NCBI GenBank assembly: GCA_051313645.2
Contig: JBNRSN020000027.1
Location: 53,320,001 to 53,384,000, forward strand
Source of the DNA: Centroscyllium fabricii
Taxonomy: Eukaryota
Reading direction: 5' to 3'
DNA length: 64,000 nucleotides
The first letter of the stretch is position 1. Every line of letters starts with the position of its first letter. The position numbers and the translations under genes are program-made. This document shows positions 4,251 to 58,778 of this stretch, piece by piece. Under the pieces are notes generated by a model that was not told the origin of the DNA, searched no databases, and saw only the letters and a program-made list of their open reading frames with translations.

Positions 4251-4832
4251 GCTGGTAAGGCCACAGCTGGAATACTGTGTGCAGTTCTGGTCGCCACACG
4301 ATAGGAAGGATGTGATTGCTTTGGAGAGGGTGCAAAGGAGAGTCACCAGGAAACATCTATGAAGAGAGACTGGACAGGCTGGGGTTGTTTTCCTTGGAGC
4401 AGAGAAGGCTGAGGGGGGACCTGATTGAGGTGTACAAAATTATGAGGGGCATAGATAGGGTAGATAGAAAGGAATGTTTCCCCTTAGTAGAGGGGTCAAT
4501 AACCAGAGGGCATAGTTTCAAGGTAAGGGGCAGGAGGTTTATAGGGGATTTGAGGAAGAACTTTTTCACCCAGAGGGTGGTTGGAATCTGGAACTCACTG
4601 CCTGAAAGGGTGGTAGAGGCAGGAACTCTCACAACATTCAAGAAGCATTTAGATGAGCACTTGGAATGCCATAATCCCTTGCCTTGTTAGTCCTTCCAAA
4701 ATGCATCACCTCACACTTTTCAGGGTTAAATTCCATTTGCCACTGTTCCGCCCATCTGACCAACCCATCTATATCGTCCTGCAGACTGAGGCTTCCCTCC
4801 TCGCTATTTACCACCCCACCAATTTTCGTGTC
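4251..4832. mobile_element. CR1 fragment (+, 4251-4675) joined to an inverted upstream piece of the same family (-, 4676-4832)
   Basis: + strand LVRPQLEYC...FFTQRVVGIWNSLP; - strand TKIGGVV...QWQMEFNPEKCEVMHFG; both match the CR1 at 40975-42090. Confidence 0.8.
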
Positions 4833-8247: not shown

Positions 8248-8858
8248 ATAGAGTTATACAGCACAGAAAGAGGCCCTTCGGCCCATCGCGTCTGCGCCGG
8301 CCATCAAGCCCTGTCTATTCTAATCCCATTTTCCTGCATTTGGTCCGTAGCCTTGTATGCTATGACATTTCAAGTGCTCATCTAAATGCTTCTTGAATGT
8401 TGTGATAGTTCCTGCCTCTACCACCCTTTCAGGCAGTGAGTTCCAGATTCCAACAGATTCCAACCGCCCTCTGGGTGAAAAAGTTCTTCCTCAAATCCCC
8501 TCTAAACCTCCTGCCCCTTACCTTGAAACTTTGCCCCCTTGTTTTTGACCCCTCTACTAAGGGGAAAAGTTCCTTTCTATCTACCCTATCTATGCCCCTC
8601 ATAATTTTGTACACCTCAATCAGGTCCCCCCCTCAGCCTTCTCTGCTCTAAGGAAAACAACCCCAGCCTGTCCAGTCTTTCTTCACAGCTGAGCGCTCCA
8701 GCCCAGGTAACTTCCTGGTGAATCTCCTCTGCACCCTCTCCAAAGCAATCACATCCTTCTTATAGTGTGGCGACCAGAACTGCACACAGTACTCCAGCTG
8801 TGGCCTTACCAGCATTTTGTACAGCTCCATCATAACCTCTCTGCTCTTATATTCTATG

Positions 8859-9042
8859 TAAGAAGTCACACAACACCAGATTATAGTCCAACAGTTTTAT
8901 TTGAAATCACAAGCTTTCGGAACACTGGAGCAGCGCTCTGAAAGCTTGTGATTTCAAATAAAACTGTTGGCCTATAACCTGGTGTTGCGTGACTTCTTAC
9001 ATTTGTCCATCCCAGTCCAACACCGGCACCTCCACATCACCA
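8859..9042 (+). mobile_element. Hairpin retroelement family 1 (Penelope pseudo-LTR-like), centrally deleted copy
   Basis: Inverted arms 8858-8921 / 8937-9000, unique tail ...CCAACACCGGCACCTCCACATCA; exact 13-bp TSD CTTATATTCTATG (8846-8858, 9043-9055). Confidence 0.8.
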
Positions 9043-9557
9043 CTTATATTCTATGCCTCGGCTAATGAAGGCAAGTATCCCATATGCCTTTTTAACCACC
9101 TTATCCACCTGTCCTGCTGCCTTCAGGGATCTATGTACATGCACACCAAGGTCCCTCTGATCCTCTGTCTTTCCTAGGGTCCTACCATTCATTGTGTATT
9201 CCCTTGCTTTGTTAGTCCTTCCAAAATGCATCACCTCACACTTTTCAGGGTTAAATTCCATTTGCCACTGTTCTGCCCATCTGACCAACCCATCTATATC
9301 ATCCTGCAGACTGAGGCCTCCCTCCTCGCTATTTACCACTCCACCAATTTTCATGTCATCTGCGAACTTACTGATCATACCTTTTACATTTATATCCAAA
9401 TCAATAATGTAGACTACAAACAGCAAGGGACCCAGCACCGATCACTGCGGTACCCCACTGGACACAGGCTTCCAGCCGCAAAAACCTCCGACCATCATCC
9501 TCTGCCTTCTGCCACGAAGCCAGTTTTGGATCCACTGTGCCAAGGTGCCCTGGATCC

Positions 9558-9843: not shown

Positions 9844-10306
9844 GATCCCATGGGCTCTTCTTACCTTCTTGACCAGCCTCCTATGCGGGACTTTATCAAA
9901 AGGATGACTTTATGCTAGAATGGTGCTTGAGAGAAGGACGCATTTGACAGAAAGATAATTAAGTTCATTGCCATCCAATGCATAATTGTCAGGCATGCAC
10001 CGATGCAAGTTATACAACACAAGAATTTTAAGCTACAGGAAAAGTCCATTCGGTGTAATAAGGCCCTCTATTGTGACAACAGAAAGTGCTAGAAACACTC
10101 GGCAGGTCAGGCAGCATCGAGGAGAGAGAAACAGAGTTAATGTTTTGGGTCGAACCCATCGTCAGAACTCAAGTTTATTTTTGACTTATCTCAACCCCAC
10201 CCACCCACCTTCGCACCATATCGCTCAACTGCTGGGATATTGTGTAAGAGGAAAGACAAAGGTCATCTGAGAGTCAGCAGGCTGTTCGACCAGAGTGTTT
10301 TTAAAC

Positions 10307-10750
10307 TGACGTATCGTCAATAAGACTGAAAGATGAAGAGTTACCTTAACTAAAGGCTTTTATTCGCTAAAGAATGGAGCGTGTCTCGGCTGACCCCGCC
10401 TCTGACTCCTCCCCTGGGTCTCGGTACATAGGTGGCTGCTTGCCATTGTTGAAAAATTTAGCGAATAAAATTGACGTATCGTCAATAAGACTAAAAGACG
10501 AAGAGTTACCTTAACTAAAGGCTTTTATTCGCTAAAGAATGGAGCGTGTCTCGGCTGAGCTCCGGGCTGTACTGACCGGGGGATGGTAAGCAGCCACCTA
10601 TGTACCTAGACCCAGAGGAGGAGTCAGAGGCGGGGTCAGCCGAGGCAAGCTCCTGCAATCAGGTATTTACAGGTATGTACAGCGTTAACAGCAAGGTAGT
10701 TACAGGTACATTACGGTACTATGGCAGTGGTATAACACCGGTTTACCACA
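10307..10750 (-). mobile_element. 444-bp miniature LTR element: full LTR, short leader, rearranged partial second LTR
   Basis: TSD TAAAC (10302-10306, 10751-10755); full LTR 10472-10750 (TGTGGTAAACC...TACGTCA); duplicated LTR end 10307-10393. Confidence 0.8.
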
Positions 10751-14734: not shown

Positions 14735-15135
14735 ATGGCCTGTTTCTGTGCTGTACAATCTACGTAGTTCTGTGAACTTCAAGCTTAATTTGGAAAGAAC
14801 TTTGAAACCCACGGAAAGGTACAGGTGTGGAAAGCTATGATGTTCCAACTGACTAGTCTCAAAGTAAAACGATATCAAATTACATTTAATCTCATATACG
14901 GTTCAAACTCACTCTTACTCACCAGCTGAAGAGGATGTGATTAACAAAAATGTTCTGTAATAACAATGGACTCGTATTCCAGTCAAGGGGCCTGGTTTTA
15001 CTTCATTATGTCCCCATTAGGAGGTGTCAACTTCTAACTAGCAAAATGAGAGATGGCAACTGTCAGTGATCACCGGCTTCATGATCATTGGACCAGTCAC
15101 TGTGTAAGGCAGCTAAAATATCATTTAAATCTTAC

Positions 15136-15601
15136 CTATGTAGAGGGAGGAATCCTTCCTATGAACGTGATCATCTATGTAGGACACACCAAGTGGTTGG
15201 ACTGGCGTAGCACCAATACCCAGTAGGACTTGGGCTCCAATTAGCAGTAGGTACATCATGTTGGTATTAGTCCTGTTCCTGCAGATTAATTTTGCTTCCG
15301 GTCCTTGGCTGCTCGTTGATACATTCCCAATGCACAGGTCCCTGCCTTCCATGCCCCAGGGGATCTCCCCAGTTTCATACTCATACTGGTGGGTGAGGAA
15401 CTCTGGCAGGGCAGACAGCAAAGCCCCCAGGGCCATCACGATGCCCCCGCATCCTATCAGACGTGGCCTGTGCCCCTTTGCCCCAAAGTAGCTCACAAAT
15501 AAAATCAGGGCCAAATTTCCGATCTCAAAACTGCTGGCTATGACACCGACATCAGCGCTCTGTAGGTTAAACCTCCTCTCCAGAGTCGTCAGCACGCTGA
15601 C
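15136..15601 (-). CDS. SLCO3A1: Internal coding exon (likely exon 2) of solute carrier organic anion transporter 3A1 (OATP3A1)
   Basis: Translates VSVLTTLERRFNLQSADVGVIASSFEIGNLALILFVSYFG...RPRLIGCGGIVMALG...ATPVQPLGVSYIDDHV...SSLYI(G), recognisable as OATP3A1; polypyrimidine tract and AG acceptor (15603-15602); GTAAG donor from 15135; 466 bp, phase 0 to 1. Confidence 0.93.
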
Positions 15602-16060
15602 CTGGACAAGGGGGGGAAAAGAAAGTCTGGAGTTATACAGGTGTTACACAAAGCATTTAACAGCAAGGTACTAAGCAGTCATTCAACATAGACAAATGCT
15701 ATAAGGCAGGGTAACCAGTATTGCAGAGAGCAAGCATGAAGCATCCCCCAGCTGATGCCTGGAGAAAGTTCCATGTTGCCCTGTGTGGAACTCTATACAA
15801 TGATGATGAATGAAAATAAGAGGTTGAAATAAGCATTTGGGCAGTCTCAATCCAGCTTCTCACTGTCATTGCCCATAGCGCTAAAACCTCCCCTAATTCG
15901 GCACTAAATGGCACAAAATGGGAGTACTTGCTCATAAATCTGTCGTTGGGATTAGAAAGATGTCACACTGGTTTCACCACAGAGGCTTGGAATTCAGCCT
16001 AAGCTGATGGGATGGAAGTCCACTCCGTCTGCTGGCTGTGGTTTCAAGTCCCATTCCAGA

Positions 16061-17950: not shown

Positions 17951-20900
17951 ATGGCCAGAAATAATAGCTTGGCAGCTTTTGACAGCGAGATTGAGAATTG
18001 GGACACATTTATCGACAGAGTCGAGATATATTGCCAAGCTAATGAAATTGATGACGATTAAAAGGCTATAACCCTTTTAAATGCGATGGGTGCGAAGACT
18101 TTCGGGCTTTTAAAAAGTTTAGCGGTGCCGACGAAACCGATTGACAAGACTTATACACAGATAGTCACATTGCTTAAGGAACATTTAAGCCCTGCACTGT
18201 TGATAATCGCTGAACGTTTTAAATTTCATCGAAGAGATCAACATAGAGGGGAGTCAAATGCGGAATAATTCTCTGAATTAAGGAAACTAGCAGACCATTG
18301 TCAATATGGAGACATGCGTACAGAACTGCTAAGAGATAGATTTGTATGTGGATTCGTCAGCGAGAGCACGCAAAAACTGCTCTTAACAAAGAAAGACTTC
18401 ACTTTGGAAACGGCTTTTAATATAGCCTTGTCCCACGAATCGGCAGATAAAAGTGCCGCGGAAATTCAACACCAACCACGGGAGCGGGAGTATGAGGCAA
18501 ACAAGATGTCTCAGAGATTTGATAGATGCTACCGATGTGGCAGAACAACACACGACCAGAAAAGCTGCTGGTTTAAAGACAAACAGTGCAGACAATGTGG
18601 CAAAATTGGCCACATTGCCAGGGTCTGTAGAGCGGGGAATAAACCGAGTAAAGAAAGTAAAATATCCCCAAAATGGACAAACACCAAGGTCCACAGAGTA
18701 ACCGAGGGTAGTTCAGACTCGGAGGACGAAAAGGGTAAAACCGACAACTCCAGCACAGACCTGGGCTCTCTTAAGCTGAACAAGGTCAGCGTAAATGACG
18801 ATCGTGAGACCATCTGGGTCAAACTTAACATTGAAAAAGTCCGACTCGACATGGAACTGGACACAGGGTCAGCCCTCACTATTATAAATAAGAGAGACTA
18901 CGAGCGGCTCTTTTCACATATTCCACTGAAACAGACGGAGATAACCTTGAAGACGTACACAGGACAGAAAGTATGCCCCAAGGGAAATTTAAAGTAACCG
19001 TACGTTACCGCGGTAGAAACATACCTAACATGTACATCTACGTCTTACAGAATGGAGGTCCGCCACTACTTGGACGTGAGTGGATCAGGAAAATCCAACT
19101 TGACTGGCGCTCCATCCAGGCACTGACCATGGAGGCCAACAGGGATGCTAGCGACAATCCAGCTAGACTGGCGGAGATACTGGACAGAACGAAAGAGGTA
19201 TTCCAGGAAGGACTAGGAACCCTTAGAGGTATGACCGCCACCATTAAGATAGAAAGAAATGCCACCCCGAAATTCTTTAAGGCAAGACCTGTGCCTTATG
19301 CCATTCACCCGGCCGTGGAGGCGGAATTAGAAATTAGAGAGCCTCGAGCGGGCAGGGGTGCTTTCTAAAGTCGAGTATAGCGAATGGGCCACGCCAATTG
19401 TACCGGTTTTGAAGAAACCCTTAAGGGATACACCGGGGGAACCACAAAAAGTTCGAATATGTGGGGACTTCAAAGTCACCGTTAACCCAGTACTGCATAC
19501 AATACAGTACCCCCTACCCAGAATCAAGGACATATTTGACTCATTGGCGGGTGGTAGACGATTCACCAAAATCGAGCTGGCCCAGGCATACCTACAAATG
19601 GAGGTTGAAGATAAATCCAAAGAGTACCTCACGATAAACACACACAAGGGACTATATAGATACAATAGGCTTGTCTTTGGGGTGGCATCGGCCCCACGAT
19701 GGACCAAGTATTACAAGGGATCCCGGGTACCCAATGCTACCTGGATGACATCCTGGTGACGGGAGAAAGCGATACAGAACACCTGGCGAACTTGGAACAG
19801 GTACTCACTCGCCTAAAGAAATATGGTCTCCAGGCAAATAGGGAAAAATGCAAATTCTTTAGCAAACGAATCGCATATTGTGGACACATCATAGATGAAG
19901 AAGGACTTCACAAGTCCCCGGACAAAATTGAAGCGGTAGTGCAGGTGCCAGCACCGGAAAATGTAATACAGTTGAGGTCTTTCCTCGGGTTGGTCAACTA
20001 CTACCACAAGTTCCTGCCGAATTTATCAACGATCTTACACCCACTCAATACCCTCCTTAAGTCAGGAGTGCAGTGGAAATGGAGTGAGGAGTGTAAAAAG
20101 GCATTCCAAAAATGTAAAGGGTTGATTACTTCTAAAGAAGTCCTGGCTCACTTAAACACAACCCTACCACTGAGGTTGGCATGTGATGCATCACCCTATG
20201 GAATCGGGGCAGTGTTATCTCACAAATGCTTGGACGGATCAGAAAGGCCAATAGCCTTCGCGTCCAGGCCATTAACCATGGCTGAGCGCAATTACACGCA
20301 GATCGATAGGGAAGCGCTCAGCCTAGTGTGGGGAGTGAAGAAGTTTAACCATTACTTGCACGGACAGAGATTTACTCTCTTAACGGATCACCAGCCCCTG
20401 GTGTCCATCTTCAACCCGACCAAAGGAGTGCCTGTAATGACAGCACAAAGACTCCAACAATGGGCACTTTTCCTAGGGGCTCATCAATATAACATCGAAT
20501 ACAAGGGCACGAAGCAACATGGAAATGCCGATGGCCTTTCACGCCTACCACTGCCTGCAGTTGAAGAAGCACCAGTAGTAGATCCGGTAGAGATTTTCCA
20601 TGCAACTATTGTTGATGCCCTACCAGTCACCAATGCCGCAATAGAGACAGAGGCTAGGAAGGACTCGACACTGTCGCGGGTGTATGATCTAACGGTATTC
20701 GGATGGCCAGCACAGGGCGCCCACTGTTGCCAGCATTTTCTGCCAGAAGAGAACAACTGTCAGTGTGCCGAGGAACCCTAATGTGCGGCACATGGGTGAT
20801 CATTCCTCCCAAACTCCAAGAAAAAGTTCTCAAAGAACTCCATGAAGGACATCTGGGGGGAGTAAAGATGAAAAGCCTCGCCAAGGCATACGTTTGGTGG

Positions 20901-21930
20901 CCATGCATAGATAAACAGATAGAGGACCTGGCCAAAGGATGCAATGGATGCCAGAAGGTCCAAAACGCGCCGCCGCCAGGGCCCCTACATCCGTGGGAGT
21001 GGCCCTCCTCTCCTTGGCAGAGGGTACACATAGACTTTGCTGGTCCATTCATGAACTCAATCTTCCTTATCGCTGTCGACGCCCACTTGAAATGGCCGGA
21101 GGTCATCAAGATGTCCTCTACCACTACAGAGAATACCATTTCGGTCTTGAGGACTATCTTCGCCAGAAATAGATTGCCAGAGCAAATATGCTCAGATAAT
21201 GGGCCTCAATTCGTGGCGGAGGAATTCAAAAATTTCATGAAAATTAATGGAATCAAACACTTCACGTCAGCACCTTATCACCCAGCCACAAATGGTCTGG
21301 CTGAATACTTCGTCCAAACCTTCAAGAAAGGTATGAAGGCAATGTGTGACGACAACAGGAAATTGCAGCATAAACTTGACTGTTTTTTGTTTGCGTACAG
21401 AAATACGGCGCATTCTGTCACAGGGCAGCCACCTTCGATACTTATGTTCAACCGACGGTTAAGGTCAAAATTGGACCTGGTGAAACCAAACATAAGGAGG
21501 GAGGTAGAAGACCAACAGTACCAGAGGGTATATGAGGAACCCATGAAACCCACTAGAAATTTTCAGGTAGGGCAGCCGGTGTTAGCCCGAGACTACTGGA
21601 CGACGGAAAAGTGGCAACCCGGAACGATAAGTGAACATCCGGGGCCACTCACATATACCGTGAATGTGGGAGACAACACAGTACGCAGACACGCCGACCA
21701 ATTATTAAGCAGATCTCAGTCACACACTCAGATTGAAGAGCACAACAGATCGCATGCATATGCTCAGACGGAAGAATACAGCAGCAAGACTGAAGACCTC
21801 ATTGAGGTGCTAGACGATACAAATCATCCTTTAGATGACAGGGATACTAGCCCACATAGAGAGCTGGAAACAAGGGAACGATGATATCCCGTGAGGGCTC
21901 AAAGGCCTCCAAAAAGGCTGAACTTGTAAT
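17951..21930 (+). pseudogene. Disrupted gag-pol of the Gypsy element
   Basis: ATG 17951 with in-frame stops at 18059 and 18266; two CCHC knuckles (CYRCGRTTHDQKSC, CRQCGKIGHIARVC); protease LDTGS; RT YLDD; RNaseH CDASPYG; integrase HHCC, DFAGP, SDNGPQF, NGLAE; frameshifts near 18990, 19340, 19700, 20710. Confidence 0.93.
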
Positions 21931-25719: not shown

Positions 25720-26004
25720 TTGTGTTTTAGTAATGTTGGTTCAGGGATAAATATTGGCCAGAACATGGGGGAGAACGCCTCTGCTCTTGTTCAGACTCGT
25801 GCCATGGGATTTATTACATCAACCTGAGAGAGTATTCAGGGCCTCAGTTTAATGTCTCATCCAAAAGACAACAGCCCCGACCTGTAAAAAAATCGCCGAA
25901 TTTACCTGGTGGTCCGGGAGGTACGGAGACTCGCACTCCTGGGCCTCACAGGGTACCCGCGGATAGAGGCCCACGTAGCTCCGGGGCCGGCCCAACCAAT
26001 AAAA

Positions 26005-26650
26005 GAAGGGAATCTCCAGGAGCTGCCGGGCCTGCACGTCCTCAGGCAGGTCGTGGGCCTGTAGTAGGCGTTCTTTCAAGGCCCCATACCTGTTCTCGCG
26101 CGGCGGTAGCCGCAGTAGATCAACGATGTCCGCACCGACGTGGCTGGGCAGGGCTGCCACGACGAGGAGGTAGCGGTCGGCATCGCTGTTGAGTCGCCAG
26201 AGCTTGAATTGGGCCTCCGCCTGGAGGATCCAAGTGGCTGCTTGGTGTTCCCAGAAGGTGGGGAGGCTGAGATTCCATGGCTGTTCAGCGGCTGGGCCCG
26301 GGGCGGCCGCGGTTTGCATGTTCGGGTCAGGCAGTTCGCTGTCTGGCATCGGGGTCACCAATTGTAGGGGTTATCCAACCTCCTACCTAAAGTTTTTACC
26401 AAAGAAACACAGTGCACCGGAGCACGAGTAAAACAGGTCTTTAATCATGAACTCCATACAATGACTGTTGGAAAAGGGCGCGAAAGCGCGAAGCATTGTG
26501 GGAAAAGAGATGGACAGTTCCTTAGGCCACTCAGGAACCAGGACAGGGACGCCGGCTGCCCAGTAGGGAAATGTAGGCGGGACTGACTGTGAAATGGGGA
26601 TTGTGACTTAAAGGGAAGACCCAGGGACTTCCCCCAGTAGCTACGCTACA
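26005..26650 (-). mobile_element. Truncated Gypsy element: 5' LTR, PBS-Trp and gag N-terminus
   Basis: LTR 26363-26650 (TGTAG...CTACA); PBS TGGTGACCCCGA complementary to the tRNA-Trp 3' end; gag LPTFW...W..QAEAQF...RY..VVAALP...YGALKERLL. Confidence 0.8.
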
Positions 26651-26744
26651 ATGCAATGATGTGGAGGTGCCGGTGTTGGACTCGGGTGGACAATTGTAAG
26701 AAGTCACACAACACCAGATTATAGTCCAACAGTTTTATTTGAAA

Positions 26745-26781
26745 TCACAAGCTTTCGGAGCGCAGCTCCTTCATCAGGTGA
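26745..26781 (-). ncRNA. Putative minimal type I hammerhead ribozyme
   Basis: Minus strand UCAC-CUGAUGA-A-GGAGC(UGC)GCUCC-GAAA-GCUU-GUGA. Confidence 0.65.
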
Positions 26782-27007
26782 AGTGACGAGATTCATTTAA
26801 ACACCGCATATATAGAGCGAGAGAACAATGTAATCTCTCCAACTGTTCAACATCACACCTCAGCAGAGAGACATTCATAGCAATCAAAGGTGTGAATGGT
26901 GTTTTAACAGATCAGTCAGGCAGGCACCACCCTGAGATCAATGAGGTGCAGTCACTAAGGGTCAAATCTCCCTCTATATATGCTGTGTTTAAATGAATCT
27001 CTTCACT

Positions 27008-27044
27008 TCACCTGATGAAGGAGCTACGCTCCGAAAGCTTGTGA
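27008..27044 (+). ncRNA. Putative minimal type I hammerhead ribozyme
   Basis: UCAC-CUGAUGA-A-GGAGC(UAC)GCUCC-GAAA-GCUU-GUGA: stem I UCAC/GUGA, stem II GGAGC/GCUCC, palindromic stem III AGCU. Confidence 0.65.
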
Positions 27045-27192
27045 TTTCAAATAAAACTGTTGGACTATAATCTGGTGTTGTGTGACTTCTTATACTTATG
27101 GAAGTTGAGTACAAAAGGAAGCCCCATAAGTATGAGTTGGAATCACTTAAAAAAATACACGAACACATGAAATAAAAAACTTTTTAAATTAC

Positions 27193-28061: not shown

Positions 28062-31000
28062 ACTCAGCCTGGGAGTGAGATACTCAGCCTGGGAGTGAGA
28101 TACTCAGCCTGGGAGTGAGATAACCAGCCTGGGAGTGAGATACTCAGCTTGGGAGTGAGATACTCAGCCTGGGAGTGAGATACTCAGCCTGGGAGTGAGA
28201 TACTCAGCCTGGGAGTGAGATACTCGGCCTGGGAGTGAGATACCCGGCCTGGGAGTGAGATACTCAGCCTGGGAGTGAGATACCCAGCCTGGGAGTGAAG
28301 ATACCCAGCCTGGGAGTGAGATACTCAGCCTGGGAGTGAGATACTCCGCCTGGGAGTGACGATACTCCGCCTGGGAGTGAAGATACTCAGCCTGGGAGTG
28401 AGATACTCCGCCTGGGAGTGAGATACTCAGCCTGGGAGTGAGATACTCCGCCTGGGAGTGAGATACCCAGCCTGAGAGTGAAGATACTCCGCCTGGGAGT
28501 GAGATACTCCGCCTGGGAGTGAGATACTCAGCCTGGGAGTGAGATACTCCGCCTGGGAGTGAGATACTCAGCCTGGGAGTGAGATACTCAGCCTGGGAGT
28601 GAAGATACTCAGCCTGGGAGTGAGATACTCAGCCTGGGAGTGAGATACCCAGCCTGCGAGTGAGATACTCAGCCTGGGAGTGAAGATACTCCGCCTGGGA
28701 GTGAGATACTCAGCCTGGGAGTGAGATACCCGGCCTGGGAGTGAGATACTCAGCCTGGGAGTGAGATACTCAGCCTGGGAGTGAGATACTCAGCCTGGGA
28801 GTGAGATACTCAGCTTGGGAGTGAGATACTCAGCCTGGGAGTGAGATACTCAGACTGGGAGTGAGATACTCAGCCTGGGAGTGAGATACCCGGCCTGGGA
28901 GTGAGATACTCAGCCTGGGAATGAGATACTCAGCCTGGGAGTGAGATACCCAGCCTGGGGGTGAAGATACCCAGCCTGGGAGTGAGATACTCAGCCTGGG
29001 AGTGAGATACTCAGCCTGGGAGTGAGATACTCAGCCTGGGAGTGAGATACTCAGCCTGGGAGTGAGATACCCAGCCTGGGAGTGAGATACTCAGCCTGGG
29101 AGTGAAGTACTCAGCCTGGGAGTGAGATACTCAGCCTGGGAGTGAGATACCCAGCCTGGGCGTGAAGATACCCGGCCTGGGAGTGAGATACCCAGCCTGG
29201 GAGTGAGATACTCAGCCTGGGAGTGAGATACTCAGCCTGGGAGTGAGATACTCAGCCTGGGAGTGAGATACTCAGCCTGGGAGTGAGATACCCAGCCTGG
29301 GAGTGAGATACTCAGCCTGGGAGTAAGATACTCAGCCTGGGAGTGAGATACTCAGCCTGGGAGTGAGATACCCAGCCTGGGAGTGAGATACTCAGCCTGG
29401 GAGTGAAGATACCTGGCCTGGGAGTGAAGATACCTGGCCTGGGAGTGAGATACCCAGCCTGGGGGCTGAGATACCCAGCCTGGGAGTGAAGATACTCAGC
29501 CTGAGAGTGAAGATACTCAGCCTGGGAGTGAGATACTCAGCTTGGGAGTGAGACACTCAGCCTGGGAGTGACATACTCAACCTGGGAGTGAAGATACTCA
29601 GCCTGGGAGTGAGATACTCAGCCTGGGAGTGAAGATACCCAGCCTGGGAGTGAGATACTCAGCCTGGGAGTGAGATACTCAGCCTGGGAGTGAAGATACC
29701 CAGCCTGGGAGTGAGATACTCAGCCTGGGAGTGAGATACTCAACCTGGGAGTGAAGATACTCAGCCTGGGAGTGAGATACTCAGCCTGGGAGTGAGATAC
29801 CCAGCCTGGGAGTGAAGATACCCAGCCTGGGAGTGAGATACTCAACCTGGGAGTGAAGATACTCAGCCTGGGAGTGAGATACTCAGCCTGGGAGTGAGAT
29901 ACTCAACCTGGGAGTGAAGATACTCAGCCTGGGAGTGAGATACGCAGCCTGGGAGTGAGATACACAGCCTGGGAGTGAGATACTCAGCCTGGGAGTGAGA
30001 TACCCAGCCTGGGAGTGAGATACTCAGCCTGGGAGTGAAGATACCCAGCCTGGGAGTGAAGATACCCAGCCTGGGAGTGAGATACTCAGCCTGGGAGTGA
30101 GATACTCAGCCTGGGAGTGAGATACTCAGCCTGGGAGTGAGATACCCAGCCTGGGAGTGAGATACTCAGCCTGGGAGTGAGATACTCAGCCTGGGAGTGA
30201 GATACTCAGCCTGGGAGTGAGATACCCAGCCTGGGAGTGAGATACCCAGCCTCGGAGTGAGATACTCAGCCTGGGAGTGAGATACTCAGCCTGGGAGTGA
30301 AGATACCCAGCCTGGGAGTGAGATACTCAGCCTGGGAGTGAGATACTCAGCCTGGGAGTGAGATACTCAGCCTGGGAGTGAGATGCTCAGCCTGGGAGTG
30401 AGATACCCGGCCTGGGAGTGAGATACCCGGCCTGGGAGTGAGATACTCAGCCTGGGAGTGAGATACTCAGCCTGGGAGTGAGATACCCGGCCTGGGAGTG
30501 AAGATACCCGGCCTGGGAGTGAGATACCCAGCCTGGGAGTGAGATACTCAGCCTGGGAGTGAGGTAATCAGCCTGGGAGTGAGATACTCAGCCCGGGAGT
30601 GAGATACCCAGCCTGGGGGTGAAGATACCCGGCCTGGGAGTGAGATACCCAGCCTGGGAGTGAGATACTCAGCCTGGGAGTGAGATACCCAGCCTGGGAG
30701 TGAGATACCCAGCCTGGGAGTGAGGTACTCAGCCTGGGAGTGAGATACTCAGCCTAGGAGTGAGATACTCAGCCTGCGAGTGAGATACCCAGCCTGGGAG
30801 TGAGATACTCAGCCTGGGAGTGAAGATACCCGGCCTGGGAGTGAGACACCCAGCCTGGGAGCTGAGATACCCAGCCTGGGAGTGAAGATACTCAGCCTGA
30901 GAGTGAAGATACTCAGCCTGGGAGTGAGATACTCAGCTTGGGAGTGAGATACTCAGCCTGGGAGTGAAGATACTCAGCCTGGGAGTGAAGATACCCAGCC

Positions 31001-32172
31001 TGGGAGTGAGATACTCAGCCTGGGAGTGAGATACTCAGCCTGGGAGTGAAGATACCCAGCCTGGGAGTGAGATACTCAGCCTGGGAGTGAGATACTCAAC
31101 CTGGGAGTGAGATACTCAGCCTGGGAGTGAGATACTCAGCCTGGGAGTGAAGATACCCAGCCTGGGAGTGAGATACCCAGCCTGGGAGTGAGATATCCAG
31201 CCTGGGAGTGAAGATACTCAGCCTGGGAGTGAGATACTCAGCCTGGGAGTGAAGATACCCAGCCTGGGAGTGAGATACTCAGCCTGGGAGTGAGATACTC
31301 AGCCTGGGAGTGAAGATACCCAGCCTGGGAGTGAGATACCCAGCCTGGGAGTGAGATATCCAGCCTGGGAGTGAAGATACTCAGCCTGGGAGTGAGATAC
31401 TCAGCCTGGGAGTGAAGATACCCAGCCTGGGAGTGAGATACTCAGCCTGGGAGCGAGATACCCAGCCTGGGAGTGAGATATCCAGCCTGGGAGTGAGATA
31501 CCCGGCCTGGGAGTGAGATACCCGACCTGGGAGTGAGATACTCAGCCTGGGAGTGAGATACTCAGCCTGGGAGTGAAGATACCCAGCCTGGGAGTGAGAT
31601 ACTCAGCCTGGGAGTGAGATACCCAGCCTGGGAGTGAGATACCCAGCCTGGGAGTGAAGATACCCAGCCTGGGAGTGAGATACTCAGCCTGGGAGTGAAA
31701 TACTCAGCCTGGGAGTGAGATACCCGGCCTGGGAGTGAGATACCCGGCCTGGCAGTGAGATACTCAGCCTGGGAGTGAGATACTCAGCCTGGGAGTGAGA
31801 TACTCAGCCTGGGAGTGAGATACCCAGCCTGGGAGTGAAGATACCCGGCCTGGGAGTAAGATACCCGGCCTGGGAGTGAGATACCCAGCCTGGGAGTGAG
31901 ATACTCAGCCTGGGAGGGAGATACTCAGCCTGGGAGTGAGATACTCAGCCTGGGAGTGAGATACCCAGCCTGGGAGTGAAGATTCCCGGCCTGGGAGTGA
32001 GTTACCCATCCTGGGAGTGAGATATCCAGCCTGGGAGTGAGATACCCGGCCTGGGAGCTGAGATACTCAGCCTGGGAGTGAGCTACCCAGCCTGGGAGTG
32101 AGGTACCCAGCCTGGGAGTGAGATACTCAGCCTGGGAGTGAAGATACCCAGCCTGGGAGTGAAGATACCCAG
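28062..32172. repeat. Homogeneous tandem array, 20-bp unit with 21-bp variants, ~200 copies
   Basis: (ACTCAGCCTGGGAGTGAGAT)n with ACCC/ACTC and GTGAAGAT variants; ~4 more units at 32800-32889. Confidence 0.97.
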
Positions 32173-34534: not shown

Positions 34535-34977
34535 CTTCAGCCAAGGTTCAGTGGGTAGCACTCTTGCCTCAGAAGACCATAAAGTCAAATCCCACTCCAG
34601 AGACTTGGGCACATAATCCAGGCCGACACACCCAGTGCAGTGCTGAGGGGGTGCTGCACTGTTGGGGGTGCCATCTATTGGATGAGGCATTAAACCAAGG
34701 CCCCATCTGCCCTCTCAGGTGGATGCAAAAGATCCCATGGCCACTATTTTGAAGAAGAGCAGGGGGAGTTTTCCCTGTTGTCCTGGCCAATATTTATCCC
34801 TCAACCAACATCACTAAAACAGATTATCTGATGATTATCCCATTGCTCTTATTATCTCATTGGACCTTGCTGTGTTAAATTAGGCGGCCGTGTTTCCTAC
34901 ATTACCATAATGACTACACTTCAAAAAGTGCCTCCTTGACTGCAAAGTGTTTTGGGATGTCCTGAGGTTGTGACAGG
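34535..34977 (+). mobile_element. Deu-domain SINE (SacSINE-like)
   Basis: tRNA-like head, core CAGTGCAGTGCTGAGGG...GGATGAG...TAAACC...CTCTCAGGTGGATG.AAAAGATCCC, L2-type tail. Confidence 0.6.
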
Positions 34978-37871: not shown

Positions 37872-39494
37872 TTGTAGCTGTTGTTCCAGTATCTGTTTAT
37901 GGCTTTGACATTCATCCTCACCAAGATTTCTGGAATGTTCTGCTTTCTTCAATTCTGCTTGAAGAGCTAGATGAGCAGTGGTGGGTTGGTTTAGTATTTC
38001 ACACAATTTATGATTCATCAAGCTGTTTCCTCAGCACCTTGATCTCAGTATGAAGCTGTGCATTTTCTGTCTTCAACGGTGCATAGTTTGCAACGTCCTT
38101 TAACTTTTCATTTAGCAAATCATTCTGCTTCATTAACAGACAAACTTGGGATTTAGCTGCATCCAGTTCTACCTCCAACTTCTTAGATTGAGCATGGACA
38201 TATTCAAGTCCCTCTCCTTTGGAATGGATGATAGCAGACTCTTCGTGTAATCGAGCTGCCGCTGCTTCAATTCTTTCCTCATTTGCTGTCACTTTCTCCA
38301 GATTATCTTCTTTACGTAACAGTTCAGATTGGGCCCTGTTTTCCTGTGCTCCAGAAGAGCTGCACCCCCACGAAGGGGGGTCAGAAATGCCTCGTGGGGG
38401 TGCAGCTCGGGTGATTACCAGAAACGTGAACTTCCTGTGCTGATGGGCAAGGGGCTTCAGCTTCCTACCCAGGAAGACTTTGAGCTGCAGACTTCCTGTA
38501 GGCAGCTGCTCAAAATGCGGGTGTATCACGTGGGCAAGTCTCTCTTGAGCTGCACATATAAAAAGCAGTCTTAAGAGGCTGCAGGCAGCTTTGAGAAGTG
38601 AAAAAAACACGTTTAAAGTTTTAAAAAAATGGATTCCTTTGAGGATATTTGTCTGTGGTCTTTCAGCTTGTAAATGGGTAGGGTTTTATATTATTTGGTG
38701 AAAGTGAAAAAAAATCGGGATTTGAACGCGATGTCAGCAGCTGTGATGGCCATCGGAGCTGCTGACATCGCGTTCAAATCCCGATTTTTTTTCACTTTCA
38801 CCAAAAGATATAAAACCCTACCCATTTACAAGCTGAAAGACCACAGACAAATATATCCAAAGGAATCAATTTTTTTTTAACTTTAAACGTGTTTTTTTGA
38901 CTGGAGCAGAAAAAAACCCTAACATCAGAAAAGGCAGAAACTTAAAAAACCAGCTTCCTAGAAACTGAAAAAAAACAAAAAAAAGGTGCTTCCCTACCTG
39001 ATATTCTTCATCCCGCAGGCCGATTCTGTGCTTCGTTCGGGGGGAAAGCCGACCTCAGTGGGCGTGGCTTGCACCCCGCACCAAAAAAAAGACGTCCCCT
39101 CCGCTGGAAAAAAACCCGGCATTTCCCACAGGAAGTTGCCGTCGGAAAAAAAAAAAAGTACGTGCGCGTGTGCCGCGGGTGCTCGGGAGCGCGCACCAGC
39201 GGCAAATGGGCCACAGGAAGACATGGCCCAATAACAGCTGCTATACTGATGTTGCAAATCCTCTCTGCTGTTTTGCAAAGTAGAAAGTTTCTCCTCCCTG
39301 CATAAAATTTCAATGTGTATGTTTCCATACATCTCAATTGGTTCTTCTATTTGTTTGCGATATACAAGCAGTTTTGTTTCCCAAAAGTCGTCTTGCACGT
39401 TTGCTGGATGAAGTGCTGCATATTCTTCATCAACCATTTGAAGTTTATCAACAATAGATTCCTTGCACTATGGAATGCAGCTGGTCTGAGTTTC
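37872..39494 (-). pseudogene. OFD1: Captured fragment of an OFD1-like coiled-coil gene (interrupted by a MITE at 38331-39229)
   Basis: ETQTS...SIVDKLQMVDEEY...ETKL..YRKQIEE; KKLEVELDAAKSQ..LLMKQNDLLNEKLKDVANY..LKTE...LRKQLDES; QP......LQAELKKAE...HKQILEQQLQ are collinear with vertebrate OFD1 as I recall it. Confidence 0.8.
38331..39229. mobile_element. PIF/Harbinger-like MITE with a ~300-bp internal palindrome
   Basis: TIR GGGCCCTGTTTTCCTGTG / CACAGGAAGACATGGCCC; flanks ATT/AAT; palindrome 38602-38897. Confidence 0.75.
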
Positions 39495-42092
39495 TACCAC
39501 CGCTGAGACATCTGCGCCTATTTTTAAAACTCCCAGTTTCATGGCTGTCTCCCTTCCTAGCAATGGTTCTCCAGGGGCTTTAACTACAATGAACTCCACC
39601 TGCTGAGTTCTCTTGCCTATTGTAATCCCACATGTGAATACATCTTTAACTGACAGTGGTCGGCTCGAAGCATAAGAGAATAACTTTCTCTCTGTCTTAG
39701 GGATATGTAACTGACACTTAATGTGTTCTGACTTTAATCCTTGCCAGGTATTCTCATCTATTACGTTACTGGTTGCACCCGAATCAATTAACATTCTCAG
39801 GTTTACTCCCCCTACACAAAAGGTAAGTCTCTTTGTCACGTTATTTCCTGTAACAGTAAATGCAAAGTCATTTTGTTCCACTACATTGTTCACTCTGTGT
39901 TTCTTTGCATCCTTTGTGTGGCACATTTTGGAGAAATTATCCTTTCCCTTGCACTTATGACACGTTTGTCTGTGTGCTGGGCATTTCAGATGTCTGCCCA
40001 TGTGGTCTGTGTAGCCACATCTGTAGCATTTACTTTTGTTCTCTGACGAGCTTTTTGCATCATACTGTCTTTTCCCTGTAACACGATGAACAGTATCTGT
40101 CTCCGCCTTCTCTGTACATGACATGGCTGACATCTGCTCCTCGACGTTTTCACATTGTGAGGCCAGTTGCAAAGTGCGGGCGAGCATTAAATCTTGCCCT
40201 TCCTCTAGCAATTTCTTCCGCACATAGGCTGACCTGCACTGACTCAGGATAGCGTCTCTTACTTGATTATCCGCATCCCCCCAAAAGCACAGTCCTTCGC
40301 AGCCTGCCGCAAGCGAGTAGCAAATTGTTGCACACTCTCACCTGTCTTCTGAGACAACTTGTGAAAAGTCTGTCCAGCAAATGCTGCGTTGACCTGGGGC
40401 ACGAGGTAGAGATTTAAAGCACTAACCGCCGCCGCGTAGTCTGCCGGCTCTCCTGTGTCTGGTGGAGTCAAAAAGATATCCTGGACATCTCGTCCTGCTA
40501 AGTGTAGGAGTGAAGCTCTTCTTCTCTGCTTTTCGGCATCTGTAAAGGTATCATCGATAATGAGTCCTTTGCCATCGGCAAAAAGCTCAAAAGACATAAA
40601 CCACCTCGTCCATCTCGGACCCAACGTGGCTGGCTCGGCGAAACATTCAATATTTTGAATGCTGGTATTCTCCATCCTAACTAACTAAAGCTTGGGCACC
40701 TACCTATCTAAAACGATTCAGTTTATTTTCCTCATCGCCAATGTTGTATCTGTGCTGCAATACATTTAATCAAGCATGTAGATACATCGAATTAAATCAC
40801 AGCTCAGTCAGACAGATTCGAACACACTGTTCACTTTATATCGTTAGATGGCTTCCGCCTCATGGCTGTATATCTCCCACAATGCAATGCCCATTACATA
40901 CCATAATACCTGGTGTAAACTGAAACCTTATATTACCGTATTATCTGGTGTAAATGCGCAATCAATACACGACAGGATCCAGGACGCCTTGGCACATTGG
41001 ATCCAAAACTGGCTTAGTGGCAGAAGGCAGAGAGTGATGGTCAAAGGTTGTTTTTGTGACTGGAAGCCTGTGTCCAGTGAGGTACCGCAGGGATCAGTGC
41101 TGGGTCCCTTGCTGTTTGTAGTCTACATTAATGATTTGGATATCAATGTAAAAGGTATGATCAGTAAGTTCGCAGATGACACAAAAATTGGTGGGGTGGT
41201 AAATAGCGAGGAGGGAAGCCTCAGTCTGCAGGACGATATAGATGGGTTGGTCAGATGGGCGGAACAGTGGCAAATGGAATTTAACCCTGAAAAGTGTGAG
41301 GTGATGCATTTTGTAAGGACTAACAAGGCAAGGGAATACACAATGAATGGTAAGATCCTAGGAAAGACAGAGGATCAGAGGGACCTTGGTGTGCATGTAC
41401 ATAGATCCTTGAAGGCAGCAGGACAGGTGAATAAGGTGGTTAAAAAGGCATATGGGATACTTGCCTTCATTAGCCGAGGCATAGAATATAAGACCAGGGA
41501 GGTTATGATGGAGCTGTACAAAATGCTGGTAAGGCCACAGCTGGAGTACTGTGTGCAGTTCTGGTCGCCGCACTAGAGGAAGGATGTGATTGCTTTGGAG
41601 AGGGTGTAGAGGAGATTCACCAGGATGTTACCTGGGCTGGAGCGCTTCAGCTATGAAGAAAGACTGGACAGGCTGGGGTTGTTTTCCTTGGAGCAGAGAA
41701 GGCTGAGGGGGGACCTGATTGAGGTGTACAAATTTATGAGGGACATAGATAAGGTAGATAGAAAGGAACTTTTTCCCTTAGTAGAAGGGTCAATAATAAG
41801 GGGGCATAGTTTCAAGGTAAGGGGCAGGAGATTTAGAGGGGATTTGAGGAAGAACTTTTTCACCCAGAGGGTGGTTGGAATCTGGAACTCACTGCCTGAA
41901 AGGGTGGTAGAGGCAGGAACCCTCACAACATTCAAGAAGCATTTGGATGAGCACTTGAAATGCCACAGCATACAAGGCTATGGACCAAGTGCTGGAAAAT
42001 GGGATTAGAATAGACAGGGCTTGATGGCCGGAATGGACGCGATGGGCCGAAGGGCCTCTTTCTGTGCTGTATAACTATGACTATGACTCTAT

Positions 42093-44953: not shown

Positions 44954-45911
44954 CTAAATAACAACAGAAAACACTGGAAAAACTCAGCAGGCCAGACAAC
45001 ATCCATGGAGAGAGAAATAGAATCAACGTTTTGGGTTGAAACCCTTCTACAGAACTGTACAAGGGTTTCAACCTGAAATGTTGACTCTATGAGGGAAAAA
45101 TTGGGTTGCGCCCCTTTTGGGACGCTAACCTCGGAAAGTAGCGCCCCGAAAAAGTTAGCGCCGTTCCGCCTTAAATTGGGTTTTAGCGCCCCAAGTAGGA
45201 GGTGAGGCGCTACTGCAGGCGCCCCACCTCGTTCCTTGAGCGCAACAACTGAATTTTGGGACACTGTGGGTCGCTGCGCCACGCTCTGCAGCACACTGCG
45301 CCGCGGTACTGCAGGCCTCCCTCCCCTTCTTAAAGAGGAGTGGCCTAGCGCGGCGCGGCCCGGCACCCCGCTGGATTGCCGGAGATCAGAGTGCCGGCAA
45401 AGGAGCCCGGCACATGAGGGAAGTGCCGGGCTCACGGAGCACAGCCAACACTCCGCGGGGGGGCATCGGGGAAGGCCGGGGACGGCAGAGGGGGCAGGTG
45501 CTAGCAGGCGGCCAGCAAGAAAAATGGCCGCCCGGCAACCCCCCCCCCCCTTTAAATAACGCTGGCCCGGCTGCAACTGTGTCCCCCTGACCCTGTCAGA
45601 AATAGCGTCCAGCGTTAAGTCAGGGGACGCGACTGAAGTTCGCCGCCAGGGCGCGAGCAAGACGCTGCGCACGGTGATGGCATCATTGCCGCCACCGCCA
45701 GCGCCCCGCTGAATATCACGGGAGGTGCCAGCCCAGGCGCTAGGTGCCTTGCGCCCCATTAGAACCCCTCTTAGGGCGCTAACTGCTGGCGCAAGCAACC
45801 CAATTTTTCCCCCTGTTTCTCTCCCCACGGATGTTGCCTGGTCTGCTGAGTTTTTCCAGCGTTTTCTGTTGTTATTTCGGATTTCCAGCATCTGCAGTAT
45901 TTTGCTATCGT
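44954..45911 (+). mobile_element. Hairpin retroelement family 2 (Penelope pseudo-LTR-like), split by a MITE
   Basis: Arm 44955-45048 is inverted relative to 45055-45090 plus 45817-45878; tail to 45911; exact 12-bp TSD ATTCTTGTAAAC (44942-44953, 45912-45923). Confidence 0.75.
45091..45813 (+). mobile_element. PIF/Harbinger-like MITE (family C)
   Basis: GAGGGAAAAATTGGGTTGC / GCAACCCAATTTTTCCCCC; flanks TAT/TGT; homologous to 50283-51048. Confidence 0.8.
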
Positions 45912-46380: not shown

Positions 46381-47627
46381 GCATTATTTACTATTATAGA
46401 ACTAAGCTATTCTTTTCCTGAAATTATTAAAAAGGATTTCCCCCCTCTAACCTTTCTCTCTCCCTTCCTGCATGCATCTACCTCAAAGTAGAGTCGCGGA
46501 GGAAAGTTCCCAGGGGCCATTTAAGAATCAGTTGAATGATCCGATGGGGAGGGTACTGTAGGGTCTTTCTGGAGAGACATTCTGGGATAGGCTGAATAAC
46601 CTTCCTTATCGTATCTACCTCATGTTTCGTACTGGGATACAGTCCCACGGGCAGTGGTCAATATTTCCTGTCTGACCCTTCATCAGAACTGTTGTTGGAA
46701 AATGTTAATCTATCATTTCCTCTTTCAAATGTCGACAGACCTGCTGTGTATTTCCAGCATTTCCGGTTTCTATTTTAAATTCCCAGCGGTCGTGTGTTTT
46801 ATTTCTCTATTTTAACCTCTTAAGACTTCATATTACATTAGGAAACACAATTACAGCGGGTTTTTATGGGCAGCTTTTGTCGTGAAGCCGAGGCACTGTT
46901 TCGCTGCATGAAGCATAATTAGATCGTTTTCTGTTGTTTTTTTTTTCATAATTAGATCAGTTTACCTCAGATTCAGAAATGCTAAATGGAGTGAAAAAGC
47001 CGTGAGATTAGAGAATTGATCCCAAACATGAGGTAACGGTCCAGCTCGGGGAATCTCAGACACACGCACAATTGTTTTGATATAAAACTGAGCTTTGTTT
47101 TACATGTTGGCCCAGTGTTGTACATTTTTCACATGGTATCCTCCCTAAACCTCTTGGCCTCTCTACCTCTCTCTCTTTCTCCTCCTTTATAAGATGCTCC
47201 TGAAAACCTTCCGTTTTCACCAAGCTTTTGATCACCTGTCCCAATATCTCCTTAAAAAGGGAATTTTTCCAAGTTATAGGCGCTATATATTTTTTAATTT
47301 TTTTTATTCGTTGATGGGATGTGGGCATCGCTGGCTGGCTAGGCCTGCATCTTAGTGTCCATCCCTAATTGCCCTTGAGAAGATGGTGGTGAGCCGCCTT
47401 CTTGAACCGCTGCAGGTACACCCACAATGTTGCGTAGCGGTTGTTTTTGTTTACAACTGAGTGGCTTGCGAGGCCATTTCAGAGGGCATTAAGAGTCAAC
47501 CACATTGCTGTGGGTCTGGAGTCACATATAGGCCAGACCAGGTAAGGACGGCAGATTTCCTTCCCTAAAGGACATTAGTGAACCAGATGGGTTTTTGCAA
47601 CAATCGACAATGGTGTCATGGTCGCCA

Positions 47628-51048: not shown

Positions 51049-51573
51049 CATGAATTCGACTCCGGGAAATAACACTGGGTAATCGGTAAAATTACGGGAC
51101 AGAAAATTCTGTGAGGCCCGCTGACCTCAGCACCTGAACTTCTGATATGTGCTCCCGGCTGTGGAGCGCCATCCCGAGACCACTAGTTTGTAAAATCTAC
51201 TGTTATCACTTATACAAAAAGGTGTATAAGAAGGTATGGTGGTGCAATGGTTATGTTACTGGACTACTGATGTTAAGAAGGCGAGTTCAAATCTCACCAT
51301 GGCAGCTTGAGAATTTAAATTCAGGTTTTTAAATGTTATTATCGAACCGTCTTGGTCCACGTGACAGCTTCACAGTGGACAGCGGTGTTACCAACGGATT
51401 CATTAAGGAGCACCACAGCTTCTGTTTCAATGTCAGATTTTCAGCATTTGCAATTCTTTTCTCTCCCGCAGTGTAGCCTCGAATACACCAGACTGCAAAA
51501 TGACACGGCAACTGATGTATTTACGTAAGAAGTCACACAGCACCAGGTTATAGTCCAACAGCTTTATTTGAAA

Positions 51574-51610
51574 TCACAAGCTTTCGGAGCGCTGCCCCTT
51601 CGTCAGGTGA
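51574..51610 (-). ncRNA. Putative minimal type I hammerhead ribozyme
   Basis: UCAC-CUGACGA-A-GGGGC(AGC)GCUCC-GAAA-GCUU-GUGA. Confidence 0.6.
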
Positions 51611-51730
51611 AGTGAAGAGATGCATATAGGCACAGCATATATAGTCAGAAATTGCTGTGATTCTCTGCTGGGGTGTGATAAAGGGCAGTTGGAAAAGATT
51701 ATATGCTGTGCCTATGTGCATCTCTTCACT

Positions 51731-51767
51731 TCACCTGATGAAGGAGCAGCGCTCCGAAAGCTTGTGA
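51731..51767 (+). ncRNA. Putative minimal type I hammerhead ribozyme
   Basis: UCAC-CUGAUGA-A-GGAGC(AGC)GCUCC-GAAA-GCUU-GUGA. Confidence 0.65.
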
Positions 51768-52414
51768 TTTCAAATAAAGCTGTTGGACTGCAAGCTGGTG
51801 TTGTGTGACTTCATAAATTTGTCCACCCCAGTCCAACACCGGCATCTCCGCATCATGTACTTACCAGCAGAGATCTATAACGAAATGAGAACGAAAGTGC
51901 ACCTCCACGGATGGCAGTGACCCGTACCTTGATCTGCATTCATCTTACGTCTGCACAATCAATACCATTTCGCTTCTTCAACTGTTTAAATCAAACGGAG
52001 ATGGGATTTGTCTCCGCGGCTGGCTCAGGATGCGGAGGTGCTGTGATATTCAAACAGCCGAAGCTGAAAGGCCTCGGGTTTGATTGCTGATCTGTGCTGA
52101 TTGTAGCTAGAGTGGCAGTAAAGGGCCCCGATGCATGGGACGGCTGAGGTTTTGTAATATGAATCATCTCACACTAGATTAGGGTCTCCCACATGGCAGC
52201 TGTTTCTCATTCTGCCAGCGCATTTCACACTTTACACTGCATCCATTTAATAAACATCTAGAGCGGTCTTTTGTCTCTTTGCTTGTCCTATCACCATCTC
52301 GTCTCGTCTTGAATACCTCTTAATGTCTCTGCACTTCTCTTTTGTTCTGTCATCCCCATGTCCCAGCCCTCAAACTGGCCTTTTAATCTGTTTCATTTCC
52401 TGTGTTTTCTCCTG

Positions 52415-52448
52415 GTCCTGACGAAGGGTTTCGACCTGAAACGTTGAC
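52415..52448 (+). ncRNA. Putative minimal hammerhead ribozyme of hairpin family 2
   Basis: GUC-CUGACGA-A-GGGU(UUCG)ACCU-GAAA-CGUU-GAC; palindromic stem III ACGU. Confidence 0.55.
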
Positions 52449-55748: not shown

Positions 55749-56447
55749 CGCGCGCATGTGCAGAAGGCCGCAAAACTGCTTGTGCAAATAATCACAGCGT
55801 ATTTTTATAACCAATAAGCAGACGTGTTCAAGGATTTTTTTTTTTTTAAAGACAATCTTTTTTAATCCCCATTGATTTTTCTCCTGGGTTGCTCACGGCA
55901 GGGTCCTGGATATTAATCTTCAATTCCTGGAGGCTCCCAACCAAACCTGTAGGATTGGCAATGCTACATTAGACACACAGATCCCTTCCTGTATGCAAAG
56001 CTCTCCAGTTCTGTAAGACTTTACATGTGAGTTAAACTTGGTGAAGGTCCCTAACTTGTTTGCAACACAATGATGCACAGCAATCTTCAGCACTCTCTGG
56101 TGCTGCAGCACCATGGAATGGTGCAATATGTAATTTTTTTTTAAAATTATGATCAAGAAACCTGGGTATAAGATCAAGGCTTACATTACAACATAAGATA
56201 AGTCAAGCTTGATCGACAGCCCATCCACCACCTTAAACATCAACTCCCTGCATCAACTGCGGCTGCAGTGCGTACTATCTACAAGATGCACTGCAGCAAC
56301 TCGCCAAGGCTTCTTCGACAGCACCTCCCGAACCCACGACCTCCACCACTTAGAAGGACAAGGGCAGCAGGTGCATGGGAACACCACCACCTCCAAATTC
56401 CCTTCCAGTTCATACACCATCCTGATTTGGACGTATATATCCGTCCC

Positions 56448-57003: not shown

Positions 57004-57053
57004 AAGGGTACCAAGGGATTATGGAGCCAAGGTGGGTAAATGGAGTTGAGGTA

Positions 57054-58745: not shown

Positions 58746-58778
58746 AATCGATTTTGACCTGGTTTACATAAGAACATA

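Follow-up and report, generated by a model that had tools for sequence, protein, structure and literature searches.

Two groups of Penelope elements are distinguished in vertebrates, Neptune and Poseidon (bioRxiv 10.64898/2026.07.22.740005, available portion), and a CX2-5CxxC linker between RT and EN is given as a mark of Neptune or Nematis (PMC8557442, main text as accessible). A dimer mechanism for minimal hammerheads is reviewed in PMC6155905, and CUU lies outside the two cleavage triplets described as fastest in the accessible part of PMC3138052. In the Penelope-like element (PLE) of a lizard, Poseidon_Ac, hammerhead cleavage needs the element's protein, and extension of both strands begins at two internal sites, one at each end of the tail; the accessible text reports no strand difference in RT start site in vitro (PMC11167929), so the presence of a single tail per insertion is left without explanation by that study. 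For the question of how inverted pLTRs with a one-sided tail arise, the shark family described here offers tens of thousands of insertions in which tails, target-site duplications (TSDs), and subfamily alleles can be scored.

The window, by which is meant the whole 64,000-nt stretch of Centroscyllium fabricii DNA analysed, contains three hairpin copies, A, B, and C (Table 1). We put at roughly 93% the probability that these are dead, 5'-truncated, head-to-head insertions of one abundant EN+ Neptune-type shark PLE; the figure concerns the identity of the element, and the dual-priming step is graded separately below. A preliminary description had located the three copies correctly and had given TSDs for A and C; when the copies are aligned, arm-to-arm identity is 88-100%. 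It had also ascribed them to Penelope, and this is borne out by alignment to pLTR-flanked ORF units elsewhere in the genome, at 76-97% identity and continuously to the unit's end. Its "variable spacer" between the arms does exist, but is the element's own 3'UTR on the strand of the tail arm: copy B aligns without a break from 26654 to 26967 with the full unit L052 (80.7%). The tailed arm of copy A is 94.7% identical to positions 1946-2058 of L056, where the ORF's ATG comes next. What had to be given up is the notion of a distinct ORF-less hairpin family: the ORF-bearing units share the same pLTR and the junctions vary widely, which makes the window copies truncation products of an autonomous element. 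They are truncated and code for nothing, and the reported absence of a Penelope ORF from the window was confirmed by tblastn with two proteins, which gave no match. Comparison of the flanks of copy B detected no TSD. An LTR-like sequence starts with TGTAG about 8 bp from its tail, and this insertion may have split or disrupted the TSD; a primer-binding-like site and a DUF7041 frame come after it, and its other end was not found.

Table 1. Coordinates of features in the window. Cut sites are predictions, and the numbering of the motifs follows the hammerhead consensus.
Feature	Position	Strand	Remarks
Copy A, left TSD	8846-8858	+	13 bp, exact repeat at 9043-9055
Copy A, inverted tail-less arm	8859-8927	-	Starts within stem II, without the catalytic CUGANGA box
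Copy A, tailed arm	8927-9039	+	Stem II to ORF start; tail ~9002-9039
Copy A, right TSD	9043-9055	+	
Copy B, tail	26657-26694	-	38-nt stretch of 5' leader; its end falls on the position of the ORF start codon
Copy B, tailed pLTR arm	26695-26822	-	TATA-like box near 26807-26814, hammerhead motif, AATAAA near 26734
Copy B, minimal type I hammerhead motif	26745-26781	-	C3 at 26777; predicted cut after 26749 (CUU); sense in SLCO pre-mRNA
Copy B, "spacer" (Penelope 3'UTR)	26823-26966	-	
Copy B, inverted tail-less arm	26967-27092	+	96.8% identical to the other arm
Copy B, minimal type I hammerhead motif in inverted arm	27008-27044	+	C3 at 27012; predicted cut after 27040
Copy C, left TSD	51515-51524	+	10 bp, one mismatch
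Copy C, inverted tail-less arm	51525-51651	-	Hammerhead motif 51574-51610, sense in SLCO pre-mRNA; C3 at 51606; predicted cut after 51578
Copy C, tailed arm	51651-51854	+	3'UTR piece 51651-51696, pLTR arm 51700-51817, tail from 51818
Copy C, hammerhead motif in tailed arm	51731-51767	+	C3 at 51735; predicted cut after 51763
Copy C, right TSD	51855-51864	+	Opening letters coincide with the ORF's ATG
Second hammerhead family	52308-52512	+	C3 at 52418
Second hammerhead family	44958-45057	-	
Second hammerhead family	45061-45090		
Second hammerhead family	45813-45875		
Second hammerhead family	10070-10169	-	
Second hammerhead family	34755-34827	-	
Decayed hammerhead-like core	46664-46686	-	
LTR-like sequence beside copy B	about 26350-26649	-	
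Primer-binding-like site and DUF7041 frame	25852-26370	-	
OATP/SLCO exon	15128-15643	-	Pfam E=4e-51
Minisatellite	28062-32172		20-bp unit, ~203 copies, 92% matches; SLCO intron 1
Further long inverted repeats	38597-38902, 59954-61079, 10376-10653, 56445-57303		
Broken LTR-retrotransposon frames (protease, RT, RNase H, integrase) and other RT fragments	18269-21884, 54319-55323, 40848-41576, 58772-60205	+	
Broken LTR-retrotransposon frames and other RT fragments	39471-40337	-	

The parent element was reconstructed from 20 long loci. In three of these (L052, L053, and L056) the pLTRs are direct repeats 3139-3159 bp apart around an ORF, giving a full unit of ~3.15 kb in the order pLTR, ORF, 3'UTR, pLTR; the linkage to ORFs with RT plus GIY-YIG, suggested earlier as a check, is present. 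None of the 20 has a complete intact ORF in one frame; L051 has an open frame of 772 aa, P0003. This protein contains DKG, GxAMG, a CX4CxxC linker (C634-x4-C639-x2-C642), and VVY..YIG, and the VVY..YIGET motif with its flanking Cys/His residues is kept in 80 aligned proteins. Its AlphaFold model has a pLDDT of 91.5, and the top two Foldseek matches are TERTs. Pfam RVT_1 matches the L052 frame (E=1.7e-7), and RVT_1 and GIY-YIG are found together in five of eight scanned proteins, all five homologs of P0003; P0003 itself has no Pfam GIY-YIG match. A PDB sequence search with P0003 gave no match, and a PDB profile search gave weak RT matches and a GIY-YIG nuclease match at E=0.5. The closest homologs of P0003 are from sharks (76-89%), followed by turtles (41-44%). 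The element therefore has what is expected of an EN+ PLE: a single ORF with telomerase-related RT and C-terminal GIY-YIG, pLTRs as direct repeats, and an inverted 5'-truncated copy with a 30-40 bp tail at one end and a TSD. The motifs, rather than a tree with named references, would place it as Neptune-type. Pieces of this Penelope ORF were also seen within annotated host gene models of a shark and a turtle (P0028, P0132, P0141: epn2, a divergent kinase-domain gene, and endothelin-3), either as annotation errors or by exonisation.

By exact pattern matching in the 7.2 Gb genome, a 31-mer of the hammerhead motif has 18,196 matches and a 32-mer downstream of it 92,814, with none for the reversed control of either. 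Among the first 30 loci, one runs from the tail into the ORF start, and others hold RT or nuclease fragments; of 34,114 candidates from a protein search of the genome, 150 were scored. The pLTR contains a TATA-like box and the putative minimal type I hammerhead; its 3' end falls at one of two fixed points, approximately 82 and 120 nt downstream of the hammerhead C3, the second at the ORF start codon. Alignment to full units identifies the tail as the 38 nt preceding the ATG.

As first described, four arms, those of copies B and C, carry CUGAYGA-A-stem II-GAAA-GCUU closed by UCAC/GUGA, and with it the whole core (CUGANGA, GAAA, UH, stems I and II), which copy A does not have. The claim that any read-through would carry one ribozyme fails for A. 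The bare pattern CTGANGA..GAAA is not enriched (7 in the window, 6.1 expected), and the Rfam covariance-model scan that had been suggested returned only generic hairpin matches, with no hammerhead family in the window up to E=10. The hammerhead motif therefore rests on comparison, not on scans. The comparison used 120 arms from 80 loci in the first 18 Mb of one contig, picked by a downstream anchor, with locus L097 left out of the arm table. Common second alleles occur at all four free sites (N7 and loop II) and at one of ten stem II sites (an A-U to G-U change), and at none of six stem I sites or of 15 core and adjacent sites (11 and 4); free and constrained sites differ at p=1e-4 with second alleles counted from 15%, a threshold chosen after the data had been seen. 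This extends to 120 arms the first impression that changes fall in the loop, at core position 7, or where pairing is kept. N7 is U in 34, C in 30, and G in 29; one subfamily has a 4-nt loop II; and U17 is invariant (113/113). Genome-wide, C7G8 has 11,765 matches, U7G8 6,431, and C7A8 906. CpG decay after insertion should hit both positions equally, as at C11.1-G12 (8 vs. 12 in the sample), and the skew at C7-G8 implies that master elements carried U7 but not A8. Two-sided stem changes occur only between families, none being found within this Penelope family in this genome. In contigs of sequencing run X1 the paired stem II positions 27021 and 27031 each vary in a compensatory direction; their linkage is not established, and they are not counted as evidence.

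Other observations weigh against the hammerhead. Mismatch in the core is 3.0%, not much tighter than the 5.0% of the downstream region, and by site count the core does not stand out from the upstream region (p=0.16). Monomer folds are no more stable than those of shuffled sequences, and the CUU triplet, in which U17 never varies, is not one of the two fastest. One of the 120 arms starts exactly at the predicted cut site, where arm 5' ends form no cluster. A cluster at -5 (23/120 arms) was considered as a transcription start and rejected, many of these arms being from subfamilies with upstream sequence unlike the reference. Taken together, the palindromic stem III and the pattern of variation, which leaves the core alone and maintains pairing, make the reading of the pLTR motif as a candidate hammerhead well supported, and the variant pattern shows that this putative ribozyme was kept by selection in the master elements.

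A second family has the same core with different stems: stem I is AGUY/GACU, stem II GGGU/ACCC, and the palindrome ACGU in place of AGCU. Its query left out its upstream stem strand. All stems are exchanged, palindrome included, and the core is kept, which fits catalytic plus dimer constraints. The family is linked to Penelope-like ORF pieces in four of 25 loci (L169, L174, L181, L184), 26-35% identical to the first family. It likewise forms inverted arms. A decayed hammerhead-like core in the window possibly belongs to a third or older Penelope family. In the 3'UTR of L056 (~4770-4810) a short stretch resembles, by eye, the sequence that follows the hammerhead in the second family; BLAST with the second family did not report it.

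An OATP/SLCO exon lies on the minus strand of the window, and the preceding exon, also minus, ~10 kb past its right end, which puts copies B and C in intron 1 and copy A downstream of exon 2. The analysis itself shows the OATP/SLCO family only; the gene is probably SLCO3A1, the name first given to it. With the gene on the minus strand, the predicted pre-mRNA sites are those after 26749 and 51578. The cuts first proposed, after 27040 and 51763, are on the plus strand. The minus-strand transcript of copy B folds as one long hairpin (-257.6 kcal/mol) that sequesters the hammerhead motif, in agreement with the earlier suggestion of masking; in such predicted folds the antisense arm masks the ribozyme of intronic copies B and C, and intronic dsRNA is plausible. 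The large shark genome carries very many hammerhead motifs that an Rfam scan does not detect, many of them in self-masking intronic hairpins. The minisatellite of intron 1 yields weak Rfam Gut-1 matches resembling chance hairpin matches, and the further long inverted repeats of these introns include a near-perfect 153-bp palindrome and nested inverted repeats.

Arm pairs were counted at 106 loci (5 overlapping ones of 111 dropped; 28 from a hammerhead-pattern search), which gave 52 inverted pairs pointing outward and left 58 arms without a partner. Exactly one tail is present in 46 of the 52 pairs, where 26 would be expected under independence (p=5e-9). TSDs, lengths, and alleles were tabulated for 49 one-tail insertions, these 46 plus the three window copies, excluding the six pairs with two or no tails, none of which has a TSD. 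The one-tail insertions have a TSD in 37 of 49 cases, of 7 bp (3), 9 (4), 10 (4), 11 (3), 12 (15), 13 (6), 16 (1), and 17 bp (1); the peak is at 12 bp, and 21 of the 37 are 12-13 bp. In 2000 trials with randomly paired flanks, a repeat of this kind turned up in 1.35%. Inverted insertions are 121-2911 bp long, with junctions at many different positions, and the arms mostly meet flush.

We incline, with some reserve, to a model in which both nicked strands serve as primers and two fixed start sites are used. The element's protein would nick both target strands ~12 nt apart; reverse transcription would be primed by each nicked end at an internal position, +82 for one and +120 for the other; and both cDNAs would stop early and independently, to be joined at their 5' ends, the outcome being head-to-head arms with one tail and a TSD. 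Because copies span the cut site, the RNA that serves as template would be uncut or re-ligated there. These copies do not tell a single RNA carrying two pLTRs from two separate RNAs. A stricter version, obligate asymmetric double priming, in which a dimer nicks 12 nt apart and uses +120 on one strand and +82 on the other, sometimes with two pLTR templates, seems to us an even bet. If it is true, every inverted insertion preserves a trace of two rounds of reverse transcription, and with ~1e5 such traces a shark genome would allow this part of the PLE cycle to be worked out from sequence data alone.

The main competitor is a fold-back, in which one cDNA or antisense RNA primes and copies itself and a nuclease trims the second end, leaving one tail. 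Self-priming has been proposed before (PMC3846280, accessible text). It would account directly for the one-tail rule and for near-symmetric short copies such as copy A (arms are of similar length in 15/49), and the arms of one insertion share subfamily alleles more than random pairs do; their non-CpG divergence is 4.4%, vs. 7.1% to other loci. A simple fold-back from the tailed arm, however, predicts nested identical arms, and the copies favour instead priming from both nicked strands: the longer arm is tail-less in 20/49 insertions and tailed in 14/49, and in 9/49 the tail-less arm reaches >100 nt further 5' than the tailed one, seven of these being fully element-covered. Arms of five insertions (L071, L098, L158, L024, L142) differ at linked sites of different subfamilies, and within insertions 14/138 diagnostic sites differ against 89/2422 invariant ones (p=0.001), with some junction artefacts among them (L132, L155). 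On this evidence a fold-back is rather unlikely. A distinct non-autonomous hairpin family, retrozyme-like or MITE-like and transcribed and copied as a unit, could be imagined from the size of the copies, about half of the 52 pairs being <300 bp, and non-autonomous PLE derivatives do exist (bioRxiv 10.64898/2026.07.22.740005, available portion); yet lengths form a continuum with differing junctions, the interior is Penelope 3'UTR or ORF, and the window holds no tandem array of the unit, where retrozymes are head-to-tail tandems of hammerhead units. We regard such a family as very improbable. Hardly any weight at all attaches to the arms being terminal inverted repeats of a DNA transposon: inverted ends and TSDs are present, but the ends are asymmetric, with one tail, the TSDs are neither short nor fixed (7-17 bp), 58 arms have no inverted partner in the examined flank, and the occurrence of the same sequence as direct repeats around an RT ORF refutes this reading. 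The preliminary description was right on the minimal type I hammerhead and its palindromic, loopless stem III, on the inverted arrangement of partial pLTRs, and on TSDs of variable, retro-type length.

What the motif does can be questioned separately. It may persist chiefly as a signal for reverse transcription, bound by protein or acting through its fold, and cleave scarcely or not at all in vivo: copies extend across the cut site, the region downstream is about as conserved as the core, and for Poseidon_Ac the accessible account reports that ribozyme mutants still insert and that no RNA-seq ends map to the site (PMC11167929). Against this, variation avoids the catalytic bases and not N7, the second family alters every stem around an unchanged core, and related motifs are reported to cleave weakly as dimers (PMC4209133, accessible text) or with protein (PMC11167929, likewise). 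A pure signal is doubtful to us, and by analogy with those motifs the hammerhead would probably cleave at a low rate, either dimerised or together with the protein of the element. That the intronic copies were retained to regulate SLCO pre-mRNA, by cleavage or dsRNA, is suggested by the intronic position of B and C, by copy A lying after exon 2, and by the long hairpin of the B transcript, but three insertions in 64 kb are nothing unusual when the family numbers 92,814 arms or more in 7.2 Gb, their orientations are mixed, copy A has no core, and the hairpin sequesters the ribozyme. Retention for this purpose is highly improbable, marginally more so than a separate hairpin family, and with tens of thousands of copies in existence a special effect on the SLCO transcript is unlikely.

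Set beside described systems, the shark element is closest to the Neptune EN+ PLEs (Craig et al. 2021, PMC8557442, as far as accessible), with which it shares a single ORF with RT and C-terminal GIY-YIG, DKG, the CX2-5CxxC linker, pLTRs, strong 5' truncation, and an inverted 5'-truncated copy with a 30-40 bp tail at one end; it is unlike the elements described there in its abundance, its exact arm matches numbering no fewer than 92,814. Adineta vaga Penelope (Arkhipova et al. 2013, PMC3846280, accessible text) has the same head-to-head inverted pLTRs, one of them tailed, and a TATA box; its TSDs are 8-10 bp, whereas the shark mode is 12 bp, its tail ends inside the ORF rather than at the ATG, and self-priming is favoured for it, whereas the shark copies favour two primed strands. 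The minimal hammerheads of metazoan PLEs (Cervera and De la Pena 2014, PMC4209133) have the extra base between A9 and 10.1, G10.1-C11.1, a palindromic 15.2-16.2, and a short stem I, as here; most copies are truncated, and pairs on opposite strands lie 100-700 bp apart. The shark motif differs in its 5-bp stem II and CUU cleavage triplet, and no shark is named in the accessible part of that survey. Poseidon_Ac of Anolis (Frangieh et al. 2024, PMC11167929, accessible part) belongs to a different clade but has two internal RT starts bounding the tail, an uncut RNA template, extension of both strands, and a protein-assisted hammerhead, the last three being features that the shark element may share. 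Its ORF starts inside the hammerhead and its tail extends 111-118 nt into the ORF, whereas in the shark element the hammerhead precedes the ATG by ~90 nt; that part of the paper gives no figures for a one-tail rule per insertion. Non-LTR retrozymes (bioRxiv 10.64898/2026.07.22.740005, available portion) share the type I hammerhead, an origin from PLE pLTRs, and short copies without ORF, but form head-to-tail tandem arrays, where the shark copies are single head-to-head insertions of variable length. Searches of the open-access literature, main texts only, found neither a description of the shark element nor a dual-priming model; either may be touched on in the supplements of PMC4209133 and PMC11167929. 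All architectural features of the shark element are already published, and it is an ordinary product of a known class. The detail that it adds is mechanistic: the one-tail rule, the TSD peak at 12 bp, the independent truncation of the arms, and an occasional subfamily mismatch between them.
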